From positions 866,927 to 930,926 of the forward strand of contig CAXRIF010000003.1 in the NCBI GenBank assembly GCA_964231325.1: 64,000 bases of DNA, read 5' to 3'. This document shows, one piece after another, positions 14,912 to 39,701 of the stretch. Below the pieces are notes generated by a model. That model made no database searches. It was not told where the DNA came from and was given only the letters and a program-made list of their open reading frames with translations. A program made the position numbers and the translations under genes. The first letter of the stretch is position 1; each line of letters begins with the position of its first letter. The DNA comes from Rickettsiales bacterium. GTDB taxonomy: Bacteria > Pseudomonadota > Alphaproteobacteria > Rickettsiales > SXRF01.

Positions 14912-15247
14912 ATGACAGATTCTGGCGATATTCATAGGTTAGCCGGCATTACCCGCAATATGATTGGCCATCTTGAGCAAGCGGTTGAGCTTAATGACCA
15001 GGGGCTACTAGACGAAGCTAACCCACTGGCTAAAACCTATGGCAGATTGTTTGGAAGTAAGGCCTCTTATGTTGATATTCTGACGGACCTTTCGGTGTTG
15101 ATGATTAAGCTACATACGACCAGCCAAACACTGGAAAAAAAGGATGAGACTGAAGAAAGTGATGCGCAACATATTAATATGGATGCCAAAGATATGCAGC
15201 TCATCAAAGCATTTATAGATCGGCAAAAAACTCAGTCGAAACCATAA
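14912..15247 (+). CDS. Putative terminase small subunit (assigned by position)
   Basis: About 111 aa, helical-looking, AGGAG RBS, ends 17 nt before terL. Confidence 0.5.
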   Translation: MTDSGDIHRLAGITRNMIGHLEQAVELNDQGLLDEANPLAKTYGRLFGSKASYVDILTDLSVLMIKLHTTSQTLEKKDETEESDAQHINMDAKDMQLIKAFIDRQKTQSKP

Positions 15248-15264
15248 CCCTGTAATAGTAGAAA

Positions 15265-16665
15265 GTGACGTACGCCTTGTTGGACTGGTATGACGATATA
15301 GTTGCGTTTGATTTTCCAACTTTCATTGGAAAAACATTATCGACTGTAGATCCGGCAGCTGAGTATCTACCAAATTGGCATATTGATCTGTTAGCAGAAT
15401 ATTTAGAAGCGGCGCGGCGAAACGAAATATCTAGGCTTATTATTAATATGCCTCCGCGTTCGCTGAAGTCTGTTTGTGTAAGTGTGGCATGGCCAGCGTG
15501 GCTTTTAGGTAAAGATCCGCGCAGCAGAATTATTGCCGCGAGTTATGCTTCTTCCTTAAGTGTAAAACACTCGATAGATAGCCGGCTAGTGGTGACGTCT
15601 GAGTGGTATAAAAAAATATTCCCAGATGTAAAAATTAGCCGTGATCAAAATGAGAAATATAAATTCATTACCACGCAAAGAGGATATCGGCTTGCGACAT
15701 CTGTTGGCGGGAGTGTGACAGGCGAGGGCGGTAATTATCTCATCATTGATGACCCGCTTAATCCTGCGCAGGCAATGAACTCTCTTAGAAGAGATGCGGC
15801 TAATCGTTGGTTCGATCATACATTTTCAAGCAGATTAGATGATAAAAGATTAGGGGTTATTGTGCTGGTAATGCAGAGGTTGCACCAGCATGATCTAACC
15901 GGACATCTGCTTGCTAAAGGGGGATGGGAGCATTTGTGTTTACCTGCGGTGGCAACAGAACGTACGGTTTATCATTTGGGAAAAGTTGCTCATGTTCGAG
16001 AAGAAGGTGAATTGCTGCACTCTGCGCGTGAGGATGAGGGGCTGATTGCGCGCGCTAAGATAGAGCAGGGGAGCTCTGTATTTTCTGCGCAATACCAGCA
16101 GATGCCGGTGGTTGATGATGGTGAAATGGTGCGCCCATGGTGGATAGGAAGATATAAAGCTCCACCGGCTCATTTCTCTCGTATCGTACAAAGCTGGGAT
16201 ACAGCCATTAAAACCGGGATGAAAAATGATTCGAGCGCTTGTCTTACATTTGGCGAAAGTGACGGAAAAAGTTATTTGCTCGATGTATTCTCCGGAAAAG
16301 CGGAATACCCTGATTTGAAGCGGATGTTTTTTTCAACGGCAACACGTTTCCAGCCTCATGTTATTTTGATTGAGGACAAAGCCAGTGGACAACAGCTATT
16401 GCAAGATGTTCGCCGTGAAACAAAGCTCCCTGTGGTAGCTATCAACCCTAAAGCGGATAAGCTGACCAGGTTTGCTGCTGTTTCTGCCCTAATTGAAGCA
16501 GGTAGGTTACATTTGCCGGAGCAGGCGAGTTGGCTTGCTGATTTTGAAGCGGAGTTATATGCATTTCCAAATGGGAATCATGATGATCAAGTAGATGCGC
16601 TAAGCCAGTATCTTGATTGGGTGCGTGGTGAAACGTGGAATCATCTACGCATACGCAATATTTAA
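15265..16665 (+). CDS. terL: Terminase large subunit
   Basis: INMPPRSLKS Walker A variant, LIIDDP Walker B, VMQRLH, SWDTA, FPNGNHDDQVDA nuclease motif. Confidence 0.95.
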   Translation: MTYALLDWYDDIVAFDFPTFIGKTLSTVDPAAEYLPNWHIDLLAEYLEAARRNEISRLIINMPPRSLKSVCVSVAWPAWLLGKDPRSRIIAASYASSLSVKHSIDSRLVVTSEWYKKIFPDVKISRDQNEKYKFITTQRGYRLATSVGGSVTGEGGNYLIIDDPLNPAQAMNSLRRDAANRWFDHTFSSRLDDKRLGVIVLVMQRLHQHDLTGHLLAKGGWEHLCLPAVATERTVYHLGKVAHVREEGELLHSAREDEGLIARAKIEQGSSVFSAQYQQMPVVDDGEMVRPWWIGRYKAPPAHFSRIVQSWDTAIKTGMKNDSSACLTFGESDGKSYLLDVFSGKAEYPDLKRMFFSTATRFQPHVILIEDKASGQQLLQDVRRETKLPVVAINPKADKLTRFAAVSALIEAGRLHLPEQASWLADFEAELYAFPNGNHDDQVDALSQYLDWVRGETWNHLRIRNI

Positions 16666-16787
16666 AAATAAAAATTTTTTCATTTTGTCCCTTCCTGACC
16701 ATACCGGGTATGGGTACTTTATAAATATAGGCTCACATAAGTGTCTCTGAAGACAATGAGCATTCCCACATATTCCGGAGGATTCGC

Positions 16788-18062
16788 ATGGCTACTATGC
16801 ATAAGCATCGTAATCGCAAAAAAAACTCGTTTGCAGGTTTTTTGAATAATATGTTTTCTAAAAAAACAGAAAAGAAACATGCGCGAAAAAATATTTATGA
16901 TGATCTGCTCGGTAGTGCTGGTATGCGCTCATACATGGTAATGCCGGGTCAGGCGGTATGGATGGATCGTGATTATTCACAATTTGCCGAAGAAGCGTAT
17001 ATCCGAAATGTTGTGGCACATCGTGCGATAGAGATGGTGGCGTCTGCAGCTGCATCTGTGGCCATTGACTTGAATCAAATTAGTGCGAAAGGCGCGAGGC
17101 GAGAGCTTAAGGCACACCCTGTCCTCGATGTTTTGCGTAAACCAAACCCGACACAGGGAATGGGTGATTTCTTTAAGGCGCTATATAACTATCGCCTCAT
17201 TAGTGGAAATGCGTTCGTGCAGGCCGTTGGGCCGAAAAATAACGCTCCTACAGAGCTGCATTTGTTGCGTCCTGACAGGGTGGCTGTGGTGGCAGGAAAA
17301 GGTACGTTGCCATCCGGTTATCGTTACACAGTGGGCGATAAATATATTGATTTTCCAGTAGATCGGATTAGCGGGAGGTCACGTATCCTTCATATTAAGT
17401 CTTTCCACCCATATAATGATTGGTATGGTTTATCACCAGTAGAGGCGGCTGCTTATAGTATTGATCAACATAACCAGTCCAGCGCATGGAACCAGGCGCT
17501 GCTGCAAAATGGTGCAAGGCCTAGCGGGGCATTAGTTGTGAAGTCCGATGCCAACAACATGGGAACCTTATCGGAAGATCAATATACACGTGTGAAACTG
17601 CAAATTGATGAGCAGTTCACGGGTACTGTAAACGCTGGAAGGCCATTGTTGCTTGAAGGTGGGCTCGATTGGAAAGAAATGAGCCTTACACCGAAAGATA
17701 TGGATTTTGTAGAGGCAAAAAATTCATCTGCCCGCGATATTGCCCTCGCTTTTGGCGTGCCACCGCAGTTGCTAGGTATTCCTGGTGATAATCGCTACAG
17801 TAATTTGCAGGAAGCAAGGCTGGCGTTATGGGAGCAAACGGTAATTCCGTTGGTGAATTGTACGGTTGATATGCTGAATAGTTGGCTGCTACCGCAATAT
17901 GCCAATAATCTGGAATTGGTTGCTGATACAGATGCCATTTCAGCGCTTGCTGCACGTAACCAGATTATATGGGATCGCGTGGAGAAGGCGACATTCCTAA
18001 CTGATGACGAAAAACGTGCGGCAGTAGGGTATGGCCCACGCGATAAAGTAAAAAGCAATTAG
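16788..18062 (+). CDS. HK97-family portal protein (GTA g3-like)
   Basis: LHLLRPDRV, YGLSPVEAA, NGARPSGAL, LLEGGLDWK, ALAFGVPPQLLGIPGDN. Confidence 0.96.
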   Translation: MATMHKHRNRKKNSFAGFLNNMFSKKTEKKHARKNIYDDLLGSAGMRSYMVMPGQAVWMDRDYSQFAEEAYIRNVVAHRAIEMVASAAASVAIDLNQISAKGARRELKAHPVLDVLRKPNPTQGMGDFFKALYNYRLISGNAFVQAVGPKNNAPTELHLLRPDRVAVVAGKGTLPSGYRYTVGDKYIDFPVDRISGRSRILHIKSFHPYNDWYGLSPVEAAAYSIDQHNQSSAWNQALLQNGARPSGALVVKSDANNMGTLSEDQYTRVKLQIDEQFTGTVNAGRPLLLEGGLDWKEMSLTPKDMDFVEAKNSSARDIALAFGVPPQLLGIPGDNRYSNLQEARLALWEQTVIPLVNCTVDMLNSWLLPQYANNLELVADTDAISALAARNQIIWDRVEKATFLTDDEKRAAVGYGPRDKVKSN

Positions 18063-18116
18063 ACTTGCACGTTTGAAATAAATCTGTTGTGCTTCCCATG
18101 AGTGAGTTGAGGGAAG

Positions 18117-18692
18117 ATGAGATTAAAAAACACTAAATCTAGCTATGGAGCAGTTGCTAAGTGCTTTCACTGGCTTATGGCTATTTTAATTATTGGGTTG
18201 ATTATTGTTGGTTTTGTAATGACCGATATGCAAGGAAGCCCCGATAAATTTAGGCTTTATGGGCTACACAAGTCGGTAGGTGCATCTATATTGCTATTGG
18301 TTTTGTTGAGACTAATTTGGAAGTATAAAAATATATCACCCGAATTGCCGGATTCTCTAGACTCTTGGCAAAAGCTAGGAGCAAAAGCCAACCACTGGGT
18401 ATTGTACGGTTTGATGATTGCTATGCCACTTAGTGGCTGGGCTATGTCTTCTGCGGCAGGGTTTTCTGTTTCGGTTTTTGGGTGGTTTACATTGCCTGAT
18501 ATTGTGTCCGCAGATAGGGAGCTGTTTTTGCTGTTTAGGCAGGCCCACGAGACAATAGGCTACCTTATTATTATAACCGTTTTGCTACATATTACTGCTG
18601 CACTCTTGCATCATTTCTATTACGGCGATAACATATTAAGTCGGATGTTGCCGTCGTTTAAAAAGGGATTTGATGAAAAAAGCGCTGATTAG
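18117..18692 (+). CDS. Cytochrome b561 (YceJ/CybB family)
   Basis: FHWLMA, LHKSVG, HWVLYGLMIAMPLSGW, LHITAALLHH. Confidence 0.93.
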   Translation: MRLKNTKSSYGAVAKCFHWLMAILIIGLIIVGFVMTDMQGSPDKFRLYGLHKSVGASILLLVLLRLIWKYKNISPELPDSLDSWQKLGAKANHWVLYGLMIAMPLSGWAMSSAAGFSVSVFGWFTLPDIVSADRELFLLFRQAHETIGYLIIITVLLHITAALLHHFYYGDNILSRMLPSFKKGFDEKSAD

Positions 18693-19245
18693 TTTTGCCG
18701 TTGCCGCAATTAGCTTTGTCACACCTGCATTTGCAGAGGTATCGTCGTATGATGTAGTAAAGCATAAAAGCCTAGTTCGTTTTTTTGCAATTCAGAATGG
18801 CGCGCCAGTTGAGGGGCGTTTCGATGAATATACAATGGACATCAAATTCAGCCCTGATGATGTGGAAAATAGCAAAATTGTTGTTGAAATAGATATGGCT
18901 AGCCTGCGTACTGCACACGAAGATGTGTCAACAAACTTAAAGCTTCCCGAATGGCTTTCTACGGAATTATTTCCTAAAGCAAAATTTGTTTCTAAGAAAA
19001 TAAACAGGACTCCATCTACTAATAATTATTTTGCAGATGGAGATCTGACGTTACGTGGAAAAACAATGCCTGTTACCATTAATTTTCAGATGGAAGACCT
19101 GATCAACAAAGACTTTGCGCTGGCCAAAGGCTATGCCACGCTACATCGCCTTGATTTTGGTGTAGGCCAGGGTGAATGGGCTGATGACAAGGTGATTAAA
19201 AACGAAGTTCGTGTAGATTTTCGGATCGTTGCTAAGAAGCAATAA
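18670..19245 (+). CDS. YceI family periplasmic lipid/polyisoprenoid-binding protein
   Basis: Signal peptide; GDLTLRGKTMPV, RLDFGVG; typical partner of cytochrome b561. Confidence 0.92.
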   Translation: MMKKALISFAVAAISFVTPAFAEVSSYDVVKHKSLVRFFAIQNGAPVEGRFDEYTMDIKFSPDDVENSKIVVEIDMASLRTAHEDVSTNLKLPEWLSTELFPKAKFVSKKINRTPSTNNYFADGDLTLRGKTMPVTINFQMEDLINKDFALAKGYATLHRLDFGVGQGEWADDKVIKNEVRVDFRIVAKKQ

Positions 19246-19302
19246 TACCCCCTAGTAGTATTATCATTATTTTTAACTCGTAGATGTAATCTGGGAGCAC
19301 TC

Positions 19303-19902
19303 ATGTATTACGACAAAAAGATAGGAGACCGCTTGCACGAATGTAAGCGGCTTGATTTTTCATTGGACGTGAAAACATTGGATATAGATGGCCGTTTTGC
19401 TGGCTATGCCAGTGTTTTTGATGTGGTAGACAATCATCGGGATATAATCCTATACGGGGCGTTTGCTAAAACGCTTTTGGGAAGAATTCCTTCAATAAAG
19501 CTTTTGTGGCAACACCAGCAGGATGAACCTATTGGTGTCTTCAATCGTATGTTTGAAGATGAAAGAGGGTTGTATGTAGAAGGGCAGTTGTTGCTAGATG
19601 TGCAGCGGGCAAAAGAGGCCTATGCGTTATTGAAGGCGGAGGCCATTAGTGGCCTGTCAATTGGTTACTCGCCTATTAGTTATCACGTGGATGAAGAGAC
19701 GGGGATTCGCCGTTTAAGTGAAGTGGATTTATGGGAAATTAGTCTTGTGACGTTTCCGGCTAACTCCGAGGCAAATGTAACCGTTGTTAAGGGGGGTAGG
19801 CTTGAAGCATATGAGCCTGAATGGGAAACTGCGCGTAAAACGGGCCAGTTAATTGAATTGGCCGATGCCCTTGATATGGCTACGCGTAGCCTGAACAACT
19901 AA
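19303..19902 (+). CDS. HK97-family prohead protease (GTA g4-like)
   Basis: FAGYASVF, LLWQH, GLSIGY, LWEISLVTFPAN. Confidence 0.96.
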   Translation: MYYDKKIGDRLHECKRLDFSLDVKTLDIDGRFAGYASVFDVVDNHRDIILYGAFAKTLLGRIPSIKLLWQHQQDEPIGVFNRMFEDERGLYVEGQLLLDVQRAKEAYALLKAEAISGLSIGYSPISYHVDEETGIRRLSEVDLWEISLVTFPANSEANVTVVKGGRLEAYEPEWETARKTGQLIELADALDMATRSLNN

Positions 19903-19918
19903 ATATCTGAACAGACCG

Positions 19919-19948
19919 ATAGCCCACTACTGACGGGCTATTTTTTTT
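19919..19948 (+). terminator. Intrinsic terminator-like hairpin between protease and capsid genes
   Basis: ATAGCCC-ACTACTGAC-GGGCTAT followed by a T-run to 19948. Confidence 0.6.
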
Positions 19949-19974
19949 GTATTTTTAACCGTAATGAGGAAACT

Positions 19975-21174
19975 ATGAGTATATCTGAAATTACTGAACG
20001 TGTATCGACATTGGGTCATGCATGGGAACAGTTTAAACAAGTGAATGACGCTCGCTTAAATGAGATCGAGCGTAAAGGCAATGCTGATCCGCTTTATAGT
20101 GAGCATTTGCATAATATTAGTAATGTGCTGGATAATTATAAATCACGTCTTGATCAAATTGAGACTGCTTATAATCGTCCATCGCTTGATGATAACGTGC
20201 TGGGGCAAAAATCTACTTCATCTAATGGTGAATATAGCAAGGCCTTCCGTAATTATCTGCGTAAAGGTATGGATGCTGGCCTGGAGGCCCTACAAACTAA
20301 AGCGCTTTCGGTTGGCTCTGATCCTGATGGTGGTTATTTAGTAACGCCTACGATGTCTTCTAAGATTGTACAGGCGATTTTTGAAACTTCACCAATGCGT
20401 CAACTGGCATCAATTGAAACGATTTCATCTGATGCGCTTGAGATGATTGACGATCATGATGAAGCAGAGGCTGGCTGGACTACGGAGACCGCTGTAGTTA
20501 CAGAAACAGACACCCCAACTATTGCGAAACGCAATATTCCTACTCATGAACTTTATGCTCAACCAAAAGCAACACAGAAACTCGTTGATGATGCTGCTAT
20601 TGATGTTGAGTCATGGCTTGCGGACAAAATTTCGGACATTTTTGCCCGCAAAGAGAATACCGCATTTGTTAGTGGTGATGGCGTTGGTCAGCCTCGTGGT
20701 ATTTTAAGCTATGCTGCGGGTACTAGTTGGGGCCAGATTGAACAAATTGATTCCGGTTCTGATGGTGCAGTTACTGCTGATGGCCTGATTAATTTGTTTT
20801 ATTCGCTGAAGGATGAGTATAGCAAACGTGCCAGCTTCCTGATGAATCGTACTGTTGTGCAATCTGTACGTCTGTTAAAAGAAGCAACTACCAATCAATA
20901 TCTATGGCAACCGGGCCTTGCTGCTGGTACTCCGGATACCCTAATGGGGGTACCTGTGCATTTGGCGGCCGATATGCCTGTTGCTGCAAGTGATTCACTT
21001 TCAGTGGCGGTAGGTGACTTCAAATCTGCTTATCAGATTGTAGATCGTCATGGTATTCGTATTCTTCGTGATCCGTTTACCGAGAAACCTTTTATCAAAT
21101 TCTATGCAACTAAACGCGTAGGTGGCGATGTGGTTAATTATGATGCTGTTAAACTGTTGAAATTAGCAGCCTAG
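19975..21174 (+). CDS. HK97-fold major capsid protein (GTA g5-like)
   Basis: DGGYLV, ELYAQPKATQKLVDDA, GDGVGQPRG, RDPFTEKPFIKFYATKRVGG. Confidence 0.97.
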   Translation: MSISEITERVSTLGHAWEQFKQVNDARLNEIERKGNADPLYSEHLHNISNVLDNYKSRLDQIETAYNRPSLDDNVLGQKSTSSNGEYSKAFRNYLRKGMDAGLEALQTKALSVGSDPDGGYLVTPTMSSKIVQAIFETSPMRQLASIETISSDALEMIDDHDEAEAGWTTETAVVTETDTPTIAKRNIPTHELYAQPKATQKLVDDAAIDVESWLADKISDIFARKENTAFVSGDGVGQPRGILSYAAGTSWGQIEQIDSGSDGAVTADGLINLFYSLKDEYSKRASFLMNRTVVQSVRLLKEATTNQYLWQPGLAAGTPDTLMGVPVHLAADMPVAASDSLSVAVGDFKSAYQIVDRHGIRILRDPFTEKPFIKFYATKRVGGDVVNYDAVKLLKLAA

Positions 21175-21179
21175 CTATT

Positions 21180-21227
21180 CTGAAGGTTGTGGGAGGCCCG
21201 CTAATAGTGGGGTTCCCACAATTTCAG
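21180..21227 (+). terminator. Long hairpin after the capsid gene (terminator or mRNA stabiliser)
   Basis: CTGAAGGTTGTGGGAGGCCCGCTA pairs imperfectly with TAGTGGGGTTCCCACAATTTCAG. Confidence 0.6.
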
Positions 21228-21285
21228 TGCGCAAATGCCACAGAGGGTTCTGAAAATTGCTATTTCTCACAGAGTTATTGCTCAT

Positions 21286-21300
21286 TTAATGCTTTTTTAA
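21286..21300. promoter_or_regulatory. CtrA-binding box TTAA-N7-TTAA
   Basis: TTAA-TGCTTTT-TTAA, followed by TTGACC, upstream of the gene at 21364. Confidence 0.55.
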
Positions 21301-21363
21301 GCTCCTTGACCTATGAATGGGCATGAGTTAAGCTATTGAATATTGGTTATAGAGGTTATTTTA

Positions 21364-21726
21364 GTGTCTAAACTTACCCGTACAGAACAAATCATAGCAG
21401 AAAAGACTGTATGTATTTTGCTGGTTCGTGGTGAAAACCCGGATGGTGGCACGATATACGCTTATGTTGCGATCAGAGCAGATAGGCTCGAAGCCTTTAT
21501 GGAGGCGCAGCAGCAAGGTACGTTCTATCCCGAGGATTACGGCATCATTGTTGAATCTGGTGAGGGTGAACCTTCTGACGAAGTAAAAGAAAAAATGACT
21601 AAAGAATATGGGTTTAACCATGATGCGATGCTTGATATAGGGAGCACTGAAAAAGCTCACGATATTAGCAGCAATATAACAACCTACATGACCTCTTCAG
21701 GTGGAGATGAACCTAAGGAAGAGTAG
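21364..21726 (+). CDS. Small hypothetical protein (family with 8244..8540 and 39688..40005)
   Basis: GAGG RBS before GTG 21364; LLVRG..YAYV..PEDYGIIVESGEGEPSDEVKEKMTKEYGF. Confidence 0.8.
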   Translation: MSKLTRTEQIIAEKTVCILLVRGENPDGGTIYAYVAIRADRLEAFMEAQQQGTFYPEDYGIIVESGEGEPSDEVKEKMTKEYGFNHDAMLDIGSTEKAHDISSNITTYMTSSGGDEPKEE

Positions 21727-21757
21727 TCTCTTAGCCGCTCTTAGCCTGTTTTCAATA

Positions 21758-21775
21758 TTCATATAATCGTCATAT
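21758..21775 (+). promoter_or_regulatory. Pho-box-like 11-bp direct repeat
   Basis: TTCATAT-AATC-GTCATAT upstream of 21837. Confidence 0.4.
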
Positions 21776-21836
21776 TTTTGCGTTTTTGATGTGCTATCTT
21801 ATAGTGGGGTAAACTACATTCCCCGAGAGAGGGTAT

Positions 21837-22595
21837 TTGGTGACATCAAGAAGCGGACAATACAGTGGTGGCAATGGTGGCAGATCTCGGTTTGCTATCA
21901 GGGTAGCCAATTTTGTAGACTCGAATAGCTTCCGCCAGTCGGCTGGTTTTACTGGTGCTGAGTTCGTTTCCATGGGGGTTTCCCTAGGGGTTGTTGGTGT
22001 TGCAGATCAGATTGCTCCACATGCATTGGAAAAAGCCAGTAAGGCGCTCTCGAAAGCAGTAATTGAGCCTTATTTGGATAGTATCGAGGGTACGCTAAAC
22101 CGTCTCTGTAAGCTTGAAGAATGTAAAGTTGATACCAGTAAATCACGTGAGGAAAGAGCAGAAAGGCTCGCCCATACGACGATTGTGTTTAGTGCTGCCT
22201 GGGTAATAAGTATGGCGGCAAAAATTGCAACACGTCGTGTGTTAACCCAAAAAATTCCCGCACATGATCCTGATGGTGCACATTACCGTCCGCATCCTGA
22301 TGACAAAAAAGTGTTTAAGATGTCTAAGCACGAGTGGAAACTGCTGGGTGCAGATGAGGGGGTGCATTATGGCTCATTGCTTCTGCTCAATACTAGTGCG
22401 GCAAAAGTTACAGATGAATTGATTAAGACTAGTACAAATATTTTGACGAAATGTGGGATGCCTGAGAAAAAGGCGCATGAACTCTCTTCCATGGCAATGA
22501 TCTGGGAACTTCCTAATTTGCTAGGGTGGGGAGCTGGAGTTGGTGTTATATCGCACTACAACGAGCATGACTGGGGCCAGAAGGCCAAATTTTAA
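21837..22595 (+). CDS. Hypothetical membrane-associated protein
   Basis: 252-aa ORF with several hydrophobic segments; GAGAGGG RBS. Confidence 0.7.
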   Translation: MVTSRSGQYSGGNGGRSRFAIRVANFVDSNSFRQSAGFTGAEFVSMGVSLGVVGVADQIAPHALEKASKALSKAVIEPYLDSIEGTLNRLCKLEECKVDTSKSREERAERLAHTTIVFSAAWVISMAAKIATRRVLTQKIPAHDPDGAHYRPHPDDKKVFKMSKHEWKLLGADEGVHYGSLLLLNTSAAKVTDELIKTSTNILTKCGMPEKKAHELSSMAMIWELPNLLGWGAGVGVISHYNEHDWGQKAKF

Positions 22596-22789
22596 TTTCT
22601 CTTATTGTTATGAATGTTTTGATGCTATCGACCCGATATGGGTGCGAGGATGGGTTTCGTGTATCCATTTTTAGAAAAAACAATCGCTATTTAATTGCAC
22701 ACACATTAGCTGCAAGCTTTGTCCGAAATGGTTGGGCAGTGCCAATATAATATACCCACTATGGGTACTTCTATTTTCTGGAGAATTTT

Positions 22790-23341
22790 ATGACTATATT
22801 GCGTAATCGCTCTTTGGTTCGTGTTGTCGCGCCTACCAATGAACCAATTACCCTCACTGAAGCAAAACTGTATCTACGTGTAGATCGCGCAGATGAAGAT
22901 GTGTTGATTAACGACTTGATTGTGGCGGCACGTATGCACGCTGAATACTGGCTCAAGCGATCTATTTTAACGCAGACATGGAAACTGGCGTATGATGACT
23001 ACCTTACGGAAGAAGTGCTTTTGCCTATGGGCCCGGTAAGTAGTATTGATAATGTTACCATCATAGACCGTGATGAAGACAGTGAAGTCCTCGATAGTGG
23101 CTTGTATTATTTAAATGCCGCTAAAGATGCAATTATTTTTGACGAGTGCTTATCAGCGCATAGAATAGAAATTACCTATGTTACGGGATATGGCGATGCC
23201 TCTATGGTTCCCAAATCTATCAAACAAGGTATGCTTTCGCATATAGCTTCAATGTATGATGGAAGGGGCGAGGGGACTGGGCATGTGCTTCCTGAGCAAA
23301 GCGTGTGTCTTTATATGCCATTTAGAGAGGTGTCGCTATGA
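22790..23341 (+). CDS. Head-tail connector / adaptor (GTA g6-like)
   Basis: EPITLTEAKLYLRVD, AARMHAE, TYVTGYG, VPKSIKQ. Confidence 0.92.
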   Translation: MTILRNRSLVRVVAPTNEPITLTEAKLYLRVDRADEDVLINDLIVAARMHAEYWLKRSILTQTWKLAYDDYLTEEVLLPMGPVSSIDNVTIIDRDEDSEVLDSGLYYLNAAKDAIIFDECLSAHRIEITYVTGYGDASMVPKSIKQGMLSHIASMYDGRGEGTGHVLPEQSVCLYMPFREVSL

Positions 23342-24140: not shown

Positions 24141-24184
24141 TTTTATGAACGCATGCAGATTTTATGCATTGTTAAGGACATAAT

Positions 24185-31022: not shown

Positions 31023-31054
31023 CATTTAATTTCTCACTTACATTTGGAGTTTGT

Positions 31055-31657: not shown

Positions 31658-31671
31658 TTCATAGAGGGTTT

Positions 31672-32538
31672 ATGAAACAGATATCTACATCACTAGAGGC
31701 GCATATCTCCGGTGAGGTGACAACGCTTGCAACATGCTGGAAACTAAAGCGCAGAGATAATGTTATCATGGGTTTTACCAACCATGATAAAGATATTCTA
31801 TTCGATGGCGTGGTTTATAGGGCTGATACGGGATTCACACCTACCGTAGTAGAAAATACTTCAGCTGCCTCGGTTGATAACCTTGATATTGAGGGAATGA
31901 TCTCTGCCTCTAGTATTACAGAAGCGGATATATTAGCCGGGTTATATGATTTTGCAGAAATAGAAATTTTTCTGCTGAATTATAACGACACATCTCAGGG
32001 AGCATTAAAATTACGGCGTGGATGGTTAGGTGAAGTCTCATTACATAAGCAGCAATTTGTTGCTGAGGTTAGGGGGCTCACGCAGCGCTTGTCACAGACA
32101 ATAGGTGAGCTTTATTCACCATCCTGCCGTGCAACGCTGGGCGATCATCGTTGTAAGGTTGTTTTGTCAGGGCATACGGTAACAGGTAGTGTGACTAGTG
32201 TGGGGTCTACTCAGGAGTTCTTTGATACAGCGCGCACGGAAGAATCGGGGCTATTTACCTTCGGGCTAATTACTTTTACGAGCGGAGCCAATAATGGTCT
32301 TTCTATGGAAATTAAAGAATATTACTATAATGTAAGCTCTGGTGGCCGTATTATATTGGCGCTTCCTGTGCCCTATAGTATTGATAGTGGTGACACTTAT
32401 TCGCTAAGCAAGGGGTGTGATAAGACAATTACGACCTGTTTTGAGCGCTTTGACAATGTTGTTAACTTTCGTGGTGAACCAAATGTGCCGGGAATCGACA
32501 GAATGTTGGAAACAGCTGGCACACGTAGTAATTGGTGA
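31672..32538 (+). CDS. DUF2163 baseplate hub (GTA g13-like)
   Basis: TTLATCW, GFTNHD, CRATLGDHRC, GCDKTITTC, NFRGEP. Confidence 0.95.
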   Translation: MKQISTSLEAHISGEVTTLATCWKLKRRDNVIMGFTNHDKDILFDGVVYRADTGFTPTVVENTSAASVDNLDIEGMISASSITEADILAGLYDFAEIEIFLLNYNDTSQGALKLRRGWLGEVSLHKQQFVAEVRGLTQRLSQTIGELYSPSCRATLGDHRCKVVLSGHTVTGSVTSVGSTQEFFDTARTEESGLFTFGLITFTSGANNGLSMEIKEYYYNVSSGGRIILALPVPYSIDSGDTYSLSKGCDKTITTCFERFDNVVNFRGEPNVPGIDRMLETAGTRSNW

Positions 32539-32605
32539 GTTAATGATTTGGTAATGCTTTCATGGCTTAAATAGGAAAGTATTTTTCTATTTCTTTGTAG
32601 GCATT

Positions 32606-32794
32606 ATGGAGCTTTTCAAAAGTTTTTTTGTTGGTGCATTATCTGTTTTGCATGTGACTAGTAGGCCGATGCTTTATCGTTATCCTTATCGTACATCTGC
32701 GCAAGGCATACGTGCTGATTGGCAAAAAATTGCTGGAGATATAGAGAGTGTAATGGGAAAAATTAAGACAGAGGGCGATCATGGAGAAAAATAA
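32606..32794 (+). CDS. Small hypothetical protein, partner of the DUF2335-like gene
   Basis: IRADWQKIAGDI motif; overlaps the next start. Confidence 0.65.
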   Translation: MELFKSFFVGALSVLHVTSRPMLYRYPYRTSAQGIRADWQKIAGDIESVMGKIKTEGDHGEK

Positions 32795-33284
32795 GAGTAC
32801 TCCAGAACATAGCTATGCCCAGCGCCCATATAAAACGGGTGGCTATAGGAAGCCTGGTGGTAAAGAGCGAATTCAGAACCGCACTGTAGAAATTCTACCT
32901 CACCCTGAGGTGTTAGAGAGCTATAACTATGTTGTAGATGGCTCTGCCCAAATGATTCTGACTATGTTTGAAATAGAGCAAAAGCACCGTCATGAATGGG
33001 AATCTCAGGCAATAAAAATTCATAGTACGTCGACAGTATTGGGTCAGGTTCTTGGGTTTCTTATTGCTATTTCAGTATTTGTTTCTGCAACGGTGATTGG
33101 CATTTATGGCAATACTATGATTGCGGCAAGTATTTGGGTATTTGGTATGAGTATTGTCGTGATGGCTGGACTGGTTTGGGCTTATGCTAAAAGCATGGGG
33201 CAGCGTCCATTATTTGCGCGACCTACTATGCGAACTCATTTCCGCCCAGAAAAAGAGTCTAAGCAAAATACTCCTCAGGCTTAA
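32781..33284 (+). CDS. DUF2335-like membrane protein
   Basis: LPHPEVLESYN..GSAQMILTMFEIEQKHRH followed by two TM helices. Confidence 0.75.
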   Translation: MEKNKSTPEHSYAQRPYKTGGYRKPGGKERIQNRTVEILPHPEVLESYNYVVDGSAQMILTMFEIEQKHRHEWESQAIKIHSTSTVLGQVLGFLIAISVFVSATVIGIYGNTMIAASIWVFGMSIVVMAGLVWAYAKSMGQRPLFARPTMRTHFRPEKESKQNTPQA

Positions 33285-33306
33285 CTAGCTTATATTTGGA
33301 TTTTTT

Positions 33307-33759
33307 ATGAATGATGTGGACATCGTTATGGTGGCGCGCAGCTGGATTGGTACGCGTTTTCACCATCAGGGAAGACAAAAGAAAACAGAAAGACATAAGG
33401 GCGGAGTAGATTGTTTGGGGCTACTTGTTGGGGTGGCTGGCGAGCTTGGTTTGCATCTTAGTGATGGCACGCCATTAGCGAGCTTTGACTCTACAAATTA
33501 TTCACACTATCCGAACACTACAGAACTAATGCAGAAGTTAGCGCGTTTACTCGATCCTATACCTACAGAAGAGCTTTGCGCCGGTGATGTGTTGTTACTC
33601 CGTATTGATGAGAACCCTCAGCATCTTGCCATTGTTAGTAATTATCAGTCCGGTTTAGGGATGATACACGCTTATGCGCCTGCACGTGCTGTGGTTGAGC
33701 ACTCTTTGGATACATGGTGGATGAAACGCATTAAAGCTGCGTACCGCATTAAATTATAA
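33307..33759 (+). CDS. NlpC/P60 cell-wall peptidase (GTA g14-like)
   Basis: ARSWIGTRFHHQG, GVDCLGL, HLAI, MIHAY. Confidence 0.93.
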   Translation: MNDVDIVMVARSWIGTRFHHQGRQKKTERHKGGVDCLGLLVGVAGELGLHLSDGTPLASFDSTNYSHYPNTTELMQKLARLLDPIPTEELCAGDVLLLRIDENPQHLAIVSNYQSGLGMIHAYAPARAVVEHSLDTWWMKRIKAAYRIKL

Positions 33760-33774
33760 ATTAGCGAGAATATT

Positions 33775-36700
33775 ATGGCTTCGATTATACTCAGTACCGC
33801 GGGTACTGCCCTTGGTGCTGCGTCTGGAAATCCATTTATGGGGTTTCTTGGCTCTCGGTTGGGGAAAACTCTGGGCGGATTCATTGATGGTAGTATATTG
33901 GGGGGCGATGCTAAATTCCGTACACGTGGGCCGCGCCTAGCTGATCTTGGAGTGCAGACCTCTACTTATGGAAAAATGATTCCAATTTTGTATGGTACGG
34001 CACGTATTGGTGGGAATATTATTTGGTCTCGGCCTATTAAAGAGGTGGTGACTAGTACTACAAGTTCAGGCGGTGGTGCTGGTGGTAAAGGTGGCGGCGG
34101 TCGTGTAAGCCAGACTACTACAAGTTATAGCTACTTTGCTTCACTAGCTATTGGCATTTGTGAGGGTGAAGTAGATGAAGTGCTTCGTGTATGGGCGGAT
34201 GCTAAACAACTTGATCTGTCACTTTATACTGTACGTATTTATAAAGGTGATGAAGACCAGCTGCCAGATAGTCTTATTCAATCTATTGAGGGGGCCAGCT
34301 CAACACCTGCCTATAGGGGTATGGCGTATGTAGTATTAGAGGATTTCCCGCTTGCCGATTTTGGCAACCGCATACCAAATTTTACTTTCGAGGTGAGAAG
34401 GCGGCTTCTTTACCCTGATTATGAGGGTCAAGTGCTAGAGGAAATGATCAAGGGGATGGTGATGATTCCCGGAGGGGGGGAATTTGTTTACGATACCCAG
34501 ATCGAAAATAAGATTCCGGGTGCTCAGACTACCTCTGGTTGGACACAACAAGGCAATCAAGAGCCCATTAACATGCATAATGCTAATGGTGTAGCGAATG
34601 CGCTAGTGTCTTTAGACCAATTAGAAAGCACATGTCCAAATCTTGAGTGGGTATCTGTAGTTGTGTCCTGGTTCGGCACTGATATGGATGCCGGTAACTG
34701 TATCGTAGAGCCAGGAGTAGAGTTTAAAGTAGGTGCGATTACAGAACCTGATAGCTGGTCAGTGGCAGGGTATACGCGGGCAACGGCTCGCCAGATTACA
34801 TTGGTTGACGACGCTCCTCAATATGGCGGAACCCCAGATGATGACAGTATTGTACGCTATGTGCAGGAGCTTCGTAGTCGTGGATACAAGGTCATTTTTT
34901 ATCCGCTGATGTTTATGGATGTGGCCAATAAACCGTGGAGAGGTGATCTCACTGGGAGCGCAGCTGATGTGGCTGACTTTTTTACTAAAACAAATGGCTA
35001 CAACGATTTCGTTACACATTATGCAAATTTACTATCGGATAAGGTCGATGCTTTTTCTATCGGCTCAGAATATAAGGGGCTGACTAAAGTTACTGATGCA
35101 CCAGGGAACTATCCTGCTGTAAATGCGCTTGTCAGCCTTGCTGCAACCGTTAAAAGCATTGTGGAGAGCTCCGTTAAAGTAACGTATGCAGCTGATTGGT
35201 CTGAATATCACCATACTGATGGTGGCTGGTATAACATGGATCCATTATGGGCCTCCCCCAATATTGATTTTATTGGTATTGATGCATATTTCCCATTAAC
35301 AGACTCTCCGCAAGGCAGATATGATATTGATGAGGTTATTGCTGGATGGACGTCTGGTGAGGGGTATGACTGGTATTATAGTGACCCAGAAAGAACAATA
35401 CAAACCCCGTTAGACCCTGCTTACGCATGGAAAAATATTGAATGGTTCTGGAATAATACACATATTAATCCTGATGCTGTCCCAACAGCATGGGTGCCAC
35501 AATCAAAGAAGATATGGTTTACCGAATATGGTTTTCCCAGTGTGGATGGAGCCACCAATCAGCCCAATGTGTTTTTTGACCCAGATAGTAGTGTTAGTGG
35601 GTTTCCGTATTATTCAAAGGGGCGTGTAGATTTCCGTGCTCAACGTGTTGGGCTTATTGCCACTGAACATAAATGGAAAAACTCGTCATTCATTGAGCAG
35701 ATGTTTATATGGACGTGGGACGCACGTCCATTTCCTTATTGGCCCGATTTGCTTTCTATTTGGTCTGATGGAGCGTCGTGGAAAACGGGGCACTGGGTGC
35801 AAGGAAAGCTGGGGATATCAAGCTTAGCCGCTATAGTATCGGAGCTGCTTGAGAGGGGCGGGTTATCTTCAGAGGATTATGACGTTAGCAAGATAACAGA
35901 CCAAGTCGAGGGGTATGTGGTGCATGGTCAGCAATCTATTCGCGATTGTGTAGATATTCTAAAGCAAGGGTACTTTTTTGATTTGGTTGAATCAGACAAT
36001 GTTCTTAAGTTCATTCCTCGGGGTGGAGATAGTGTTCTGTCTGTTACGGAAGATAATCTGATTGCTATTGGTGATGATAATGGTGAGGCCTTTCAAATCA
36101 CGCGAGCACAGGAGATTGAGCTGCCTAAACGTGTGAATGTTGTTTATTTAAATCGTTTGGCAAATTATCAGAGTTCGACTCAATACTCACAGCGTGAAAT
36201 TAGTACTACGAGGGAAGTAACTACCATAGATCTTCCTATTGTTTTCCCGTCCCAAGTGGCTAAATCCATTGCAGATATCACGGTATTTGCCAGTTGGGTA
36301 GGGCGCACTGGATACCAATTCGACTTGCCAATGCAGTATGCTCAGATTGAGCCGACAGATGTTATTACTGTTACTGTATCTAACGTAAGTCACCGTATGC
36401 GCATTCTATCTACGCATTTGCACCCTACGGGAGCCATTCGAGTTAATGCCGTAGCAGATGATGTATCTACTTATGATTTTTATACTGCGCCGGGGGAAAC
36501 CTCTGAGGTGCCGCCTGGTGGTTTGTCTATACCTGCTACCCGTATTGAGTTTATTGATACTGCCGCATTTCCTGCCGATGAGGTGGATAAAGGCGTATTA
36601 AGGGTTGCGGGTATCGGTGTTGCTGAAGGCTGGAATGGTGCAGCGTTGTACCGGTCAGATGATAATGGAGAAAATTATACTCGTGTTGATGATATTACTA

Positions 36701-37455
36701 CGCCATCTGTTATGGGAACGGCTAACAATGTGCTCGCTAGTGGGCCGTCCGCAATATTTGATGAAATGAACACGGTAACGGTAACATTATTAGGGGATGG
36801 TGAGCTGCAAAGTGTTACCGAAATTGCCGTGCTTAATGGTGCAAATGCTGCGTTGATTGGTAATGAAATTGTGCAGTTTAAAAATGCCACATTACTAGAG
36901 CCAGGAAAATACGAATTGAGCGAATTACTGCGAGGCAGACTGGGTACTGAATGGGCTATGAGTGGTCATGTTGACGGTGAACGTTTTGTATTGCTCGATG
37001 GTCGCTTGAGCCGGCAAAGTACTCTAAATGGTGTTGTAGGCTTATTGCGTCATTATAAACCTGTAAGCTATGGAAATGCCCTCTCTGAAACTACGGCGGA
37101 GGAGTTTACGTACAGCGGTGTTGCGCTCTTACCTTATAGCCCTGTTCATATTCGAGGGGAGCGCGACGGAGCTAACAACCTCACTATCAGTTGGATTAGA
37201 CGTAGTAGATTAGGTGGTAATTGGCAGGATTTTGTTGATATTCCGCTTAATGAAACAACAGAGCAGTATGAGGTTGACATTATGAATGGTGGAGATGTGG
37301 TTAGAACGCTGTCTGGTTTAACCTCTCCTATGACTAGTTATTCTGCTGCAGATCAAATAACGGATTTTGGCAGTGTGCAGTCTTCATTAACCGTGAAGGT
37401 GTATCAACTTTCTTCTGCGATTGGCCGGGGCTATCCTGGAGAAGCGGCTGTGTAG
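33775..37455 (+). CDS. Baseplate multidomain protein (megatron; GTA g15-like, TIM-barrel)
   Basis: PAYRGMAYVV, FGNRIPNFTFEV, YGGTPDD, TYAADWSEY, SKKIWFTEYG, WTWDARP, LLRGRLGTE. Confidence 0.96.
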   Translation: MASIILSTAGTALGAASGNPFMGFLGSRLGKTLGGFIDGSILGGDAKFRTRGPRLADLGVQTSTYGKMIPILYGTARIGGNIIWSRPIKEVVTSTTSSGGGAGGKGGGGRVSQTTTSYSYFASLAIGICEGEVDEVLRVWADAKQLDLSLYTVRIYKGDEDQLPDSLIQSIEGASSTPAYRGMAYVVLEDFPLADFGNRIPNFTFEVRRRLLYPDYEGQVLEEMIKGMVMIPGGGEFVYDTQIENKIPGAQTTSGWTQQGNQEPINMHNANGVANALVSLDQLESTCPNLEWVSVVVSWFGTDMDAGNCIVEPGVEFKVGAITEPDSWSVAGYTRATARQITLVDDAPQYGGTPDDDSIVRYVQELRSRGYKVIFYPLMFMDVANKPWRGDLTGSAADVADFFTKTNGYNDFVTHYANLLSDKVDAFSIGSEYKGLTKVTDAPGNYPAVNALVSLAATVKSIVESSVKVTYAADWSEYHHTDGGWYNMDPLWASPNIDFIGIDAYFPLTDSPQGRYDIDEVIAGWTSGEGYDWYYSDPERTIQTPLDPAYAWKNIEWFWNNTHINPDAVPTAWVPQSKKIWFTEYGFPSVDGATNQPNVFFDPDSSVSGFPYYSKGRVDFRAQRVGLIATEHKWKNSSFIEQMFIWTWDARPFPYWPDLLSIWSDGASWKTGHWVQGKLGISSLAAIVSELLERGGLSSEDYDVSKITDQVEGYVVHGQQSIRDCVDILKQGYFFDLVESDNVLKFIPRGGDSVLSVTEDNLIAIGDDNGEAFQITRAQEIELPKRVNVVYLNRLANYQSSTQYSQREISTTREVTTIDLPIVFPSQVAKSIADITVFASWVGRTGYQFDLPMQYAQIEPTDVITVTVSNVSHRMRILSTHLHPTGAIRVNAVADDVSTYDFYTAPGETSEVPPGGLSIPATRIEFIDTAAFPADEVDKGVLRVAGIGVAEGWNGAALYRSDDNGENYTRVDDITTPSVMGTANNVLASGPSAIFDEMNTVTVTLLGDGELQSVTEIAVLNGANAALIGNEIVQFKNATLLEPGKYELSELLRGRLGTEWAMSGHVDGERFVLLDGRLSRQSTLNGVVGLLRHYKPVSYGNALSETTAEEFTYSGVALLPYSPVHIRGERDGANNLTISWIRRSRLGGNWQDFVDIPLNETTEQYEVDIMNGGDVVRTLSGLTSPMTSYSAADQITDFGSVQSSLTVKVYQLSSAIGRGYPGEAAV

Positions 37456-37995
37456 CTAACCTAATAAGCGCTTCTTTTGTTGTTGGAATTCCTCTTCCGT
37501 TAGGTGTCCTTTTTCCTTTAATTCGGCTAGTTTCGCTAATTGCGATGTAACATCCATATGTGTGGATGTGCCTTGTGAAGTTGAGGGTGGTGTGCTTTGA
37601 GAGAGACGTGCAGCGTGCATTGCTTCTTGCGTGGTCTTGACGAACGGCATAATGGAGCTCTTAAGTACCATTTTTATGGTAAAGGAGCTGGCGCCATCCC
37701 ATACACTTATTGAGCCAAAAACAACCGTGAATGCATGGTCTATGGATTGAATGCGATCCAGTGGAAACTGTACCTGTCTTAAGCCATAGATCATACCGCA
37801 ATTCAAGAAGACAAGGCGTCTATAGGTGCATACGCCTAGCCAAGTGGCATTGTTCATTAGTCCAGATGTAACGGCGAGAACCTCTTCATCAGAATCAAGG
37901 ATTTTGGGAAGCGCTCGGATTTCTTTCTCTGTCCAGAAAATATATTTTCCTGGGCACGCATCAATCTGACGTTTGATATCACTCAGTGAGGGCAT
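37456..37995 (-). CDS. Bacterial PH-domain protein with C-terminal SHOCT domain
   Basis: EEVLAVTSG..CTYRRLVFL..PLDRIQSI; QLAKLAELKEKGHLTEEEFQQQKKRLL; AGGAGG RBS. Confidence 0.85.
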   Translation of the reverse strand: MPSLSDIKRQIDACPGKYIFWTEKEIRALPKILDSDEEVLAVTSGLMNNATWLGVCTYRRLVFLNCGMIYGLRQVQFPLDRIQSIDHAFTVVFGSISVWDGASSFTIKMVLKSSIMPFVKTTQEAMHAARLSQSTPPSTSQGTSTHMDVTSQLAKLAELKEKGHLTEEEFQQQKKRLLG

Positions 37996-38067
37996 GTTAC
38001 CTCCTGTTTATTAACAAAATACCCCCCTCAATGTAGAGATATAATCAATTTTTGACTAGGAGAATTT

Positions 38068-38973
38068 ATGGCTACTACAAATAATCTGGGCATAACGCTG
38101 GTAGAGCAATCTCAGGCACAGAAAGAAGTTACCGTAAACCAGGCGCTAACTCGCCTTGATGCAATTTTAAACATAGGCGCGATAAGCAGGACTACAGACA
38201 CGCCTCCTGGATCTCCCGCCGAATCAGATTTGTATATTGTTGGCTCCAGCCCAACAGGAGAATGGGCGGGGCATGCCAATGAGATTGCTTATTACGAACA
38301 AAATTGGAAATTTATTGCACCTAATGAAGGGGTATCGCTATGGGTAAGTGATGAATCAACTATATACCTCTATGATGGTAGTACTTGGATACAATCAATA
38401 GGTGGTGACCTAGAGGCCATTGAGGCGCTGTCCTCTACCGGATTTTCTGTTCGAACCGGAACAGATAGCTGGGCAACTCGAATTATTACCGCTGGTACAG
38501 GTATTTCTATCTCTAATGGTAATGGTGTTGGAGGGAATACTATCGTTTCTTTTAATGCTGGTTTGTCAAACATGAATGACACTAGCATTGTTAGTCCGGT
38601 AGATGGTGAGGTGTTGACCTATAGTGGCGGGACTTGGCGTAATAAAAAGGGTCCAGCCATTACACAGTATAATTTTCAATCCGTAACTTCCTACACACTG
38701 TTAGCTAGTAATTCAGGGACTACTCTTTACTTCACCAGCTCTTCACCAGTAACCCTTTCTTTGCCTGATAGTTTGTTGGCTGGGTATAATATAAAGCTTA
38801 TTCAGGCAGGCTCTGGACAAGTGACATGTTCAACCACTGGTGGAGCTACTTTATATAACCGCCAATCTCATACTAAAACAGCTGGGCAATGGGCGGTATG
38901 TACGCTTGAAGTAGTCAATAATGTTGGGGGCGTTCTGGCAGAATACGTGTTGTCAGGGGATACTTCATCATGA
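38068..38973 (+). CDS. DUF2793 tail fibre-like protein
   Basis: SQAQKEVTVNQALTRLD, TPPGSP, YIVGSSPTGEWAGH, WKFIAPNEG. Confidence 0.88.
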   Translation: MATTNNLGITLVEQSQAQKEVTVNQALTRLDAILNIGAISRTTDTPPGSPAESDLYIVGSSPTGEWAGHANEIAYYEQNWKFIAPNEGVSLWVSDESTIYLYDGSTWIQSIGGDLEAIEALSSTGFSVRTGTDSWATRIITAGTGISISNGNGVGGNTIVSFNAGLSNMNDTSIVSPVDGEVLTYSGGTWRNKKGPAITQYNFQSVTSYTLLASNSGTTLYFTSSSPVTLSLPDSLLAGYNIKLIQAGSGQVTCSTTGGATLYNRQSHTKTAGQWAVCTLEVVNNVGGVLAEYVLSGDTSS

Positions 38974-39239
38974 TCGTGATAGACGATAAGCATTGGAAAA
39001 TTGATAAACGTATTCCTATTGCTGTAATCGTTACATTGATAATGCAGGCAGTCGCTGCCCTAATTTGGGCAACAGAACTAGATGCCCGGGTAGGGTATAT
39101 TGAAACTCAACGCTCAAAGTTTTTAGATACGAATGAGCGCTTTGTTCGCATGGAAGAACGACTTGATCACATCAAAGAAAATGTTGATTCAACAAAACGA
39201 CAGATTGATCAATTAACACGCCATTTACTTGGAAAATAA
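38970..39239 (+). CDS. Small TM plus coiled-coil protein, holin/XhlA-like or GTA g3.5-like
   Basis: WKIDKRIPIAVIVTLIMQAVAALIWA plus heptad tail; directly upstream of the lysozyme. Confidence 0.6.
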   Translation: MIVIDDKHWKIDKRIPIAVIVTLIMQAVAALIWATELDARVGYIETQRSKFLDTNERFVRMEERLDHIKENVDSTKRQIDQLTRHLLGK

Positions 39240-39257
39240 CTTATTTGGAGTGGTGTT

Positions 39258-39701
39258 ATGAAAAAAACATCGGCACTTGGTATCAATCTTATTAAAGATT
39301 TTGAAGGCTTCTCTGCCGCTAGGTACCTTTGCCCTGGTGGAAAGTTGACAATAGGGTATGGGCATGTGATCAGAGAGGATGAGCGTGATACACTACACAA
39401 CATTACCAAATTGGAGGCGGAGTCATTACTGACTAATGATGTCTGCGTTGCCGAAGATGCTATTTGTAGATTAGTAAATGTTTCTATTAACCAGAACCAG
39501 TATGATGCATTGGTTAGTTTCATTTATAATGTGGGAGTAGGGGCATTTGCGCGCTCTACACTGTTACGGCATATCAATAATGGGGAGTTTGAAAAGGCCG
39601 CTGAGCAATTTCAACGCTGGATTTATAGTTCAGGCAAAAAGCTAAGCGGACTTATCCGTAGGAGAGAGGCCGAAGCTGAGTTGTTTACTACCCCTGAATA
39701 A
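39258..39701 (+). CDS. GH24 phage lysozyme (endolysin)
   Basis: LIKDFEG, YLCPGGKLTIGYGH, NQYDALVSFIYNVG, GLIRRREAE. Confidence 0.95.
   Translation: MKKTSALGINLIKDFEGFSAARYLCPGGKLTIGYGHVIREDERDTLHNITKLEAESLLTNDVCVAEDAICRLVNVSINQNQYDALVSFIYNVGVGAFARSTLLRHINNGEFEKAAEQFQRWIYSSGKKLSGLIRRREAEAELFTTPE

Follow-up and report, generated by a model that had tools for sequence, protein, structure and literature searches.

Does the order Rickettsiales carry a gene transfer agent (GTA) of its own, and is the interleaved gene cluster described here such an agent, a prophage or a stage in the scattering of GTA genes? The cluster occupies positions 14912–39701 (24.8 kb) of a 64,000-nucleotide stretch (the window) that forms part of contig C3 in the 1.95 Mb, 47% GC, 100%-complete genome of an uncultured marine Rickettsiales bacterium. 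Published surveys place large RcGTA-like clusters outside the Rickettsiales and have used this placement to date the origin of the element (PMC5721377, section 3.4; PMC6821227, in part). We consider it probable, at roughly 0.68, that the cluster encodes a particle system of phage origin that has become fixed in the chromosome, likely a GTA, whose genes would be co-expressed through a shared promoter class and a GafZ/Q-like antiterminator.

Overall organization of the cluster

Homologues of g3–g8 and g12–g15, identified by family matches (portal, protease, HK97 capsid, adaptor, stopper, terminator, DUF2460 distal tail, hub, NlpC and megatron), stand in the order known from RcGTA and CcGTA; they are preceded by a probable g1 and the large-terminase gene (TerL) and followed by a DUF2793 fibre, a small membrane protein and a lysozyme (Table 1). 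Every structural open reading frame (ORF) is open. The canonical order over about 25 kb with uninterrupted structural ORFs, as given in a preliminary description of this DNA, is thus borne out. Its word 'intact' holds for the order of the genes that are present; the set itself is incomplete, with the tail tube and tail chaperone ~680 kb away and a 137-residue post-capsid gene not found. Inserted genes occur at all of the junctions that had been listed (portal/protease, capsid/adaptor, stopper/terminator, terminator/DUF2460, hub/NlpC and megatron/fibre). The view that all of them are non-phage genes had to be given up, as the DUF2335 gene after the hub is also found in Rickettsiaceae and the PH/SHOCT protein and cytochrome b561 match phage families too. 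An independent 109,904-base contig from another study spans 12500–27500 and 25500–41500, each unbroken, with 115 and 206 differing letters, a single 1-base gap and no joints; together with the recurrence of the layout in relatives, this excludes an assembly artefact.

Table 1. Features of the cluster and of the adjoining candidate regulator genes, in window coordinates.
Feature	Positions	Strand	Basis or remarks
upA, 183 aa, probable distant DUF6456/GafZ relative	13094–13645	-	HHalign against 20 DUF6456 proteins: P 94.2, E 1.1e-7, 142 columns
upB, 176 aa, conserved phage-derived helical protein	13677–14207	-	Alignment, phage look-alikes; same orientation as upA
Weak motif copy before upB–upA	14252–14289	-	Scores 8.7 in this genome, against at least 13 in 11 of 12 family relatives
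upC, 117 aa, family-conserved	14361–14714	-	
Promoter-like motif before g1, CCTTCCTG-N16-TAAAAT	14837–14872	+	
g1, probable small terminase	14912–15247	+	Position, no family match; ATG at 14912
Large terminase, phrog_38/TIGR01630 type, other than the RcGTA-cluster type	15265–16665	+	Family matches
Portal promoter-like motif, CCTTCCTG-N17-TACTTT, followed by TAGGCT as a second element at about +2 to +7	16684–16733	+	
Portal (g3)	16788–18062	+	Family match
Insert: cytochrome b561 and yceI	18117–19245	+	Same slot in 20 of 22 family loci
Prohead protease (g4)	19303–19902	+	Family match
Terminator-like hairpin and T run between protease and capsid	19910–19948	+	-10.7 kcal/mol; weak signal in relatives
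Major capsid protein (g5), HK97	19975–21174	+	Best PDB match RcGTA capsid 6tb9, E 5.8e-82
Insert of two genes, 127 aa (strongly conserved, with paralogues elsewhere) and 252 aa	21343–22595	+	No named family
46-aa ORF, probably a native cluster gene	22610–22750	+	Homologues before the adaptor in several other families
Adaptor (g6) and stopper (g7)	22790–23679	+	Family matches; starts 22790 and 23338
Antisense insert, 154 aa	23676–24140	-	In 11 of 20 family loci
Tail terminator (g8)	24185–24589	+	Family match
Two antisense inserts: a membrane-anchored protein of 241 aa and a SUEL-lectin protein	24592–25739	-	
Sense insert block, 664, 588 and 331 aa, lineage-restricted, in the tail-tube/tape-measure slot	26083–31022	+	No phage family
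Distal tail DUF2460 (g12) and baseplate hub (g13)	31055–32538	+	Family matches; starts 31055 and 31672
62-aa ORF and DUF2335 membrane protein	32606–33284	+	DUF2335 behind the hub in Rickettsiaceae too; matches phrog_3996
NlpC/P60 peptidase (g14) and megatron (g15)	33307–37455	+	Starts 33307 and 33775; megatron NCBIfam GTA_megatron NF048004, 1203 bits, cut-off 800
Antisense insert, bPH_3 and SHOCT	37456–37995	-	phrog_2700
Tail fibre DUF2793, 89-aa membrane protein, phage lysozyme	38068–39701	+	Starts 38068 and 38970; lysozyme 39258–39701

A single, vertically inherited copy

Relatives comprised 36 genomes of the same family and 79 capsid-relative loci, 73 of which were used for synteny counts after six (L045, L060, L070, L072, L079 and L080) had been dropped. 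The cluster occurs as one copy per genome, the capsid gene having been found in 35 of the 36 family genomes. An integrase or attachment (att) site, which the preliminary description had named as evidence that would count against its view, was looked for: no recombinase, integrase, excisionase, replication or repressor gene lies near the cluster and no tRNA in the window, a GTA-like rather than a prophage-like setting. Three tyrosine-recombinase matches are located on C2 and at C3:122172 and a resolvase on C4. The flanks, pstS/upA–upC and valS–asd–leuB, recur across genera (G001, G003, G004, G016 and G019).

Selection and phylogeny were among the checks that had been suggested. Ratios of nonsynonymous to synonymous substitution (dN/dS) for the structural genes, from four genome pairs, lie between 0.02 and 0.37, indicating purifying selection that includes the terminase and portal; the capsid gave 0.02–0.06 versus 0.02–0.05 for RpoB. 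The 52 Rickettsiales capsids group together in a single clade (SH-aLRT 99; support 93 under LG+C20 with 17 rows) with one planctomycete copy nested inside, in a tree from which G001 was left out as its gene is split between two stretches. The capsid tree tracks RpoB: the distances are correlated over 46 genomes (Mantel r 0.88, p 0.001) and 12 of the 15 well-supported capsid splits also appear in the RpoB tree. The nearest phage capsid, that of Azospirillum phage Cd (47%), branches beside the Rickettsiales clade. A lone capsid gene on the chromosome of the planctomycete Limnoglobus roseus (10001–11140), 70% identical and nested in the family capsids with none of the other cluster genes alongside, is a probable horizontal capture and perhaps serves as a shell protein.

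True prophages in the relatives have different head genes, tape measures of 630–760 residues and megatrons that are near-identical across distant hosts. Among them, lambda-like prophages with GTA-type tail tips (L407–L420, L303 and L319) carry a megatron at about 52% to that of the window and nearly identical in hosts of different orders. Another alphaproteobacterial lineage (L424 and L425, in genomes G174 and G152) has its own GTA-like cluster, with capsid and portal clades that mirror RpoB; that of G152 also contains many inserts.

Promoter-like motif and candidate regulators

The proposal of co-expression rests on a promoter-like motif of the form C/A-CTTCC-G/T-G, 17 nt, TA-N4, which was found before g1 in five of five upstream regions and, in the sense direction, before the portal in 21 of 36, with none on the reverse strand. 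At the portal, a second element, TA(G/C)GCT at about +2 to +7, is conserved; by analogy, the TAGGCT of the window is a candidate -10-like pause element. A matrix trained on the portal promoters of 18 relatives was scored over 1,902 ORFs of this genome and gave its top ranks to a TerS-like helix-turn-helix gene (C3:815721), the portal, the tail chaperone and the GTA holin (C2:296478), as well as to the first gene of a MuF locus (C3:784760) and a DUF6973 ORF of the tail locus; the tail tube scored 20.0 and a fibre-assembly gene (operon C3:1140645) 23.3. In independent sets, holins scored 12 or more in 16 of 30 loci, versus 3.6% of 525 background ORFs, and stand-alone family tail tubes scored 18 or more in six of six cases, versus none of the 21 in-cluster tubes. 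At 16 or more, C3 holds 20 matches versus eight in a shuffle.

With scores under 6, the regions ahead of the protease, adaptor, terminator, distal tail, NlpC and fibre lack the shared motif, and no further copy lies downstream of the portal promoter inside the cluster, so that the ~23 kb from portal to lysozyme would need read-through. A scan of 12000–31500 for the sigma-70 consensus and for terminators did not rise above shuffles (33 versus 45 and 21 versus 16, respectively), and none of the six sigma factor genes in the genome was tied to the motif. A palindrome before the portal and adaptor (TACCC-N5-GGGTA) was rejected, having 68 genome-wide matches and not being kept in most relatives, and a motif match in a prophage of G016, inside the terminase gene, was taken as chance. 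A small intergenic repeat that starts with a motif copy (C2:297570, C2:122997 and C3:1174745) could seed new promoters or merely mimic them.

Beside the cluster, upA is a probable distant DUF6456/GafZ relative, an assignment also reached as an Atlas lead. The top two of 48,161 chains compared with its structure model are both antiterminators, Q (6jnx_P, Z 5.8) and AlpA (7xyb_G, Z 5.5), and upA is predicted to be a Q-like processive antiterminator. A prophage in G014 has a homologue of upB ahead of its terminase genes; the fold of upB had no clear match in the PDB, and we regard upB as a candidate co-regulator. No GafY-like gene was identified. GafZ allows polymerase to pass terminators in the Caulobacter GTA cluster (PMC11150451, in part), and antitermination by Bartonella BrrG needs a -10-like element just behind the promoter (10.1101/2024.11.20.624540, in part). 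The present arrangement resembles lambdoid late control and the BrrG system of BaGTA in having an antiterminator-like gene beside late genes and a second -10-like element just downstream of the promoter; it would differ in its non-consensus -35 box and in several promoters with the same motif. Literature searches for GafA homologues in Rickettsiales and for a CTTCC promoter of the Wolbachia gene transfer agent found nothing by title or abstract, subscription papers and supplements being outside the search.

Moved and missing parts

The tail tube, chaperones and tape measure (g9–g11) are not within this cluster; in many relatives the tail tube and chaperones are. In this genome C3:201087–202182 holds both the tail tube (PF06199, E 9e-36) and the chaperone, a g10/g10.1 fusion, back to back and divergently oriented. 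No tape-measure gene was identified with confidence anywhere in the genome, and a TIGR01541 search gave no match. Two genes beyond the chaperone, a 331-residue ORF (C3:199107–200102) with a weak DUF6973 match has a tape-measure-like end by eye; two small membrane- or lipoprotein-like genes lie between it and the chaperone (C3:199107–201217), and in the relative G050 a DUF6973 gene stands behind the distal tail gene. The 137-residue gene (phrog_5707), present behind the capsid in 22 of 23 family loci and in all four relatives checked, was not found in this genome. Besides the capsid, the megatron (35 of 36 genomes) and the GTA holin (34 of 36) are near-universal in the family. Same-genus genomes G001, G002 and G003 are without stopper and terminator in the cluster, and G001 and G003 retain a fast-evolving tail tube there, the opposite of the window genome.

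Proposed mechanism

We propose that the motif would act as a sigma-70-type promoter with a TTCC(G/T)G -35 box that is read with an activator, and that upB–upA would autoactivate from their own motif copy. Loading of upA at the portal promoter, where the second TANNNT lies at +2 to +7, would enable polymerase with upA to read on for about 23 kb, across the inserts and past the terminator-like site ahead of the capsid. A gene moving out of the cluster (tail tube, chaperone or holin) would be retained where it comes to lie downstream of another copy of the motif, and such promoter capture may offer a route to scattered GTA genes. The particle would have a small head with a neck, a short tail and a megatron baseplate, and would package host DNA.

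A number of observations weigh against this reading. The best Z scores of upA, 5.5–5.8, are below the level of 8 that the tool treats as clear; in a PF20057 search upA fell below the Pfam cut-off and its own genome had no match, and Foldseek against the PDB found none for upA. The motif is loose genome-wide, with 73 matches at 13 or more on C3 versus 70 in a shuffle, and several of the top matches fall within housekeeping genes or repeats. The stand-alone tail tubes, six in number, represent at most three events, four being in one genus. Terminator-like sites before the capsid occur in seven of 27 family loci on each strand, the reverse being as common. In the dN/dS comparison dS is near saturation, and the RpoB tree contradicts two of the well-supported capsid splits. 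The ORF at C3:199107–200102 was missed by a profile of 15 short tape-measure C-termini, so that its tape-measure label comes from position and inspection by eye. The tail is also eroding: the tube was found in 21 of the 36 family genomes and not in 15, the terminator was not found in any of three same-genus genomes and the megatron of G048 is a fragment, suggesting that DNA delivery may have been lost in places.

Relation to known gene transfer agents

The likeness to RcGTA and CcGTA goes beyond gene order to a GTA 3TM (three-transmembrane) holin located elsewhere, a putative DUF6456-like regulator and accessory genes at distant promoters (PMC11150451, in part). In contrast, the present cluster has a large terminase of another family, 14 inserted genes, a lysozyme within the cluster, a moved tail tube and a regulator that stands divergently beside it; its promoter boxes are unlike those reported for CcGTA (AATCAT/TATCTTT), and its capsid and megatron are not sister to those of RcGTA-type clusters. 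RcGTA-like large terminases have been treated as one lineage (PMC7947584, in part). Two phage terminases match 15 of 17 non-Rickettsiales cluster loci at 40–57% over about 400 residues, whereas the window terminase reaches at most 27% over 150–230 residues against the same loci and 43–68% in all three Rickettsiales loci; the comparison loci, Rhodoplanes elegans among them, are RcGTA-type by inference and RcGTA g2 itself lies outside the set. On these identities the window terminase is not of the RcGTA family. An approximately unbiased (AU) test rejects a single capsid clade with RcGTA-type clusters (p 4.5e-5 and p 1.3e-4), and in a megatron tree that left out G115 and G040 the window megatron is nearer to prophages than to those clusters. 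Because of the terminase, the capsid test and the megatron, membership in RcGTA proper is doubtful. A first portal tree had seemed to unite all chromosomal portals; the fork lost its resolution once closer phage portals were added, and a single origin is compatible with it. The system may have been domesticated separately, out of the same phage pool, or it may share one origin with RcGTA and have exchanged modules. By analogy it would work like RcGTA.

Shakya et al. define a large cluster as one of nine or more homologues (PMC5721377, in part), and the 10 RcGTA homologues found here in one locus besides the terminase make it large by that rule. The same authors found no large cluster in Rickettsiales (section 3.4), and the table of Kogay et al. 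lists such clusters in none of 24 Rickettsiales operational taxonomic units (PMC6821227). Scattered GTA genes under selection were described from endosymbiont Rickettsiales by George et al. in 2022; their account (PMC9254644) has head, distal tail, hub and megatron kept and the tail tube often missing, a pattern that the present cluster shares along with the capsid clade and purifying selection. Capsid relatives are mainly from uncultured Rickettsiales, and the leucine synthesis genes and Flp pilins near the cluster fit the environmental basal families of PMC9352585 (in part); the main texts of that paper and of PMC10847448 contain no discussion of phage or gene transfer agent.

Age and distribution of the inserted genes

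The capsid tree divides the 73 loci into 61 of an interleaved clade and 12 of its sister clade. Between capsid and adaptor, a deep clade within the Rickettsiales has the 127- and 252-residue families in 49 of 49 loci and the sister clade has them in none of 12; the 241/SUEL/664 families were present behind the terminator in 43 of 45 loci versus none of nine, and in the sister clade none of these insert families fills the slot from terminator to distal tail (none of eight). By the counts in Table 1, b561–yceI and the 154-residue gene are later, family-level additions; the other inserts are, from their distribution, old fixed residents of one deep clade, and dN/dS places inserts under selection of their own. 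In an RpoB tree rooted on other alphaproteobacteria, which used one gene and a quick search, the insert-bearing genomes form one clade (SH-aLRT 96), the sister of which (99) unites compact-cluster environmental genomes, Rickettsiaceae and Jidaibacter. Some clusters of the sister clade are nearly uninterrupted (L029, G050 and G040). Synteny, a comparison already called for, shows that layout and insert slots recur in relatives with the inserts confined to one clade.

The post-capsid insert belongs to a family of 105–127 residues with 553 homologues, no Pfam entry and four paralogues in this genome (window 21343–21726 and 39688–40005; C3:303111 and C3:974200); the post-capsid copy is as conserved as the capsid (dN/dS 0.03–0.07). 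In one genus a gene pair, which we take to be DUF5131-like and three-Cys-motif genes, is inserted between protease and capsid (L020, L021 and L094).

Stand-alone MuF genes

Of 29 loci with stand-alone MuF genes, nine have the motif immediately ahead of the gene. In the present genome it is one gene further upstream, and the MuF gene (C3:783108–784127; MuF E 6.9e-14) has a C-terminal extension without a family. The locus (C3:781500–784815) consists of this gene under the GTA motif, a 213-residue gene before it and four small ORFs behind. MuF was found in 14 of the 36 family genomes, and a colicin E5 RNase domain forms the C-terminus in two of 21 MuF proteins of relatives that were scanned. MuF polymorphic toxins of temperate phages similarly combine the MuF domain with a variable C-terminus and small ORFs behind, and in SPP1 MuF binds the portal and enters heads (PMC5576092, in part); here, the genes differ in standing alone, away from portal genes and often behind the GTA motif. 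A literature search found nothing linking MuF toxins with gene transfer agents, subscription papers and supplements again lying outside it.

Alternative interpretations

Co-expression through one promoter class has to be weighed against a layout with a separate, different promoter for every module, in which the inserts would be independent host operons and read-through would be unneeded. We regard this as possible though rather unlikely: gaps of 57–343 nt before several modules and the selection acting on the inserts would suit it, while the internal modules lack any shared motif and an antiterminator-like gene adjoins the cluster. The particle might also have been repurposed to deliver proteins, either MuF toxins or the 664-, 588- and 331-residue proteins, instead of or besides host DNA; repurposing as such was raised by George et al. 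(PMC9254644, in part). The motif before MuF genes, the RNase domains, the presence of SPP1 MuF in heads and the persistence of head genes beyond tail genes all point this way. However, the two MuF genes with a named toxin domain had no motif match in their loci, the MuF tail of this genome has no family and MuF is confined to fewer than half of the family genomes, terminase and portal stay under selection and the sense inserts belong to no phage family; the idea is unlikely in our estimate.

Far less probable is that the cluster is an intermediate between a single operon and the scattered GTA genes of host-associated Rickettsiales, as the preliminary description had suggested. It is longer than RcGTA, has already shed the tail tube and shows relocation with a promoter copy, and the move of the tube with its own motif copy resembles a start of scattering. 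The insert families are nevertheless absent from the clade that leads to the host-associated families, whose remaining blocks are contiguous, and the RpoB tree sets the two apart as sister clades. On this evidence the interleaved layout is a side branch, and host-associated scattering did not pass through it. Least credible of the alternatives is that the cluster is a prophage, resident or decaying, to which drifting host genes were added. The closest relatives of the megatron are mobile prophages of the same hosts and the phage Cd capsid is next to the Rickettsiales clade; against this stand the lack of integrase, replication and repressor genes nearby, the single conserved copy, purifying selection and vertical tree, and the fact that true prophages of relatives have their own head module, a long tape measure and, in G016:C2, an integrase. 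A chromosomally fixed particle system, likely co-expressed, remains our preferred interpretation.

Wider implications

More speculatively, and with low confidence, Rickettsiales may have had their own separately domesticated GTA lineage since the order's last shared ancestor, with a regulon that recruited MuF toxins and a cluster scattered by promoter capture. The different packaging motor, own promoter class and Q-like regulator still beside the cluster would mark this lineage as separate. If so, a kin-discriminating toxin would accompany the DNA in the particles, and the scattering of the cluster in Rickettsia-like and Wolbachia-like descendants would be accounted for by promoter capture. 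That environmental Rickettsiales carry a near-complete cluster, inherited vertically and with a different terminase, reopens the dating of the element's origin and sets the puzzling GTA remnants found in endosymbionts in their ancestral context. The motif and upA make co-regulation of a fragmented GTA, and other particle cargo, testable.

Additional loci

The fibre-assembly gene under the motif belongs to a four-gene operon (C3:1138690–1140645; 118, 170, 158 and 203 residues) with tail-fibre and fibre-assembly matches, homologues of which stand behind the fibre gene in prophages of relatives. Two Flp/Fap pilin genes (window 12431–12986) adjoin the regulators, and three tandem prepilin-like genes are located at 3528–6022.

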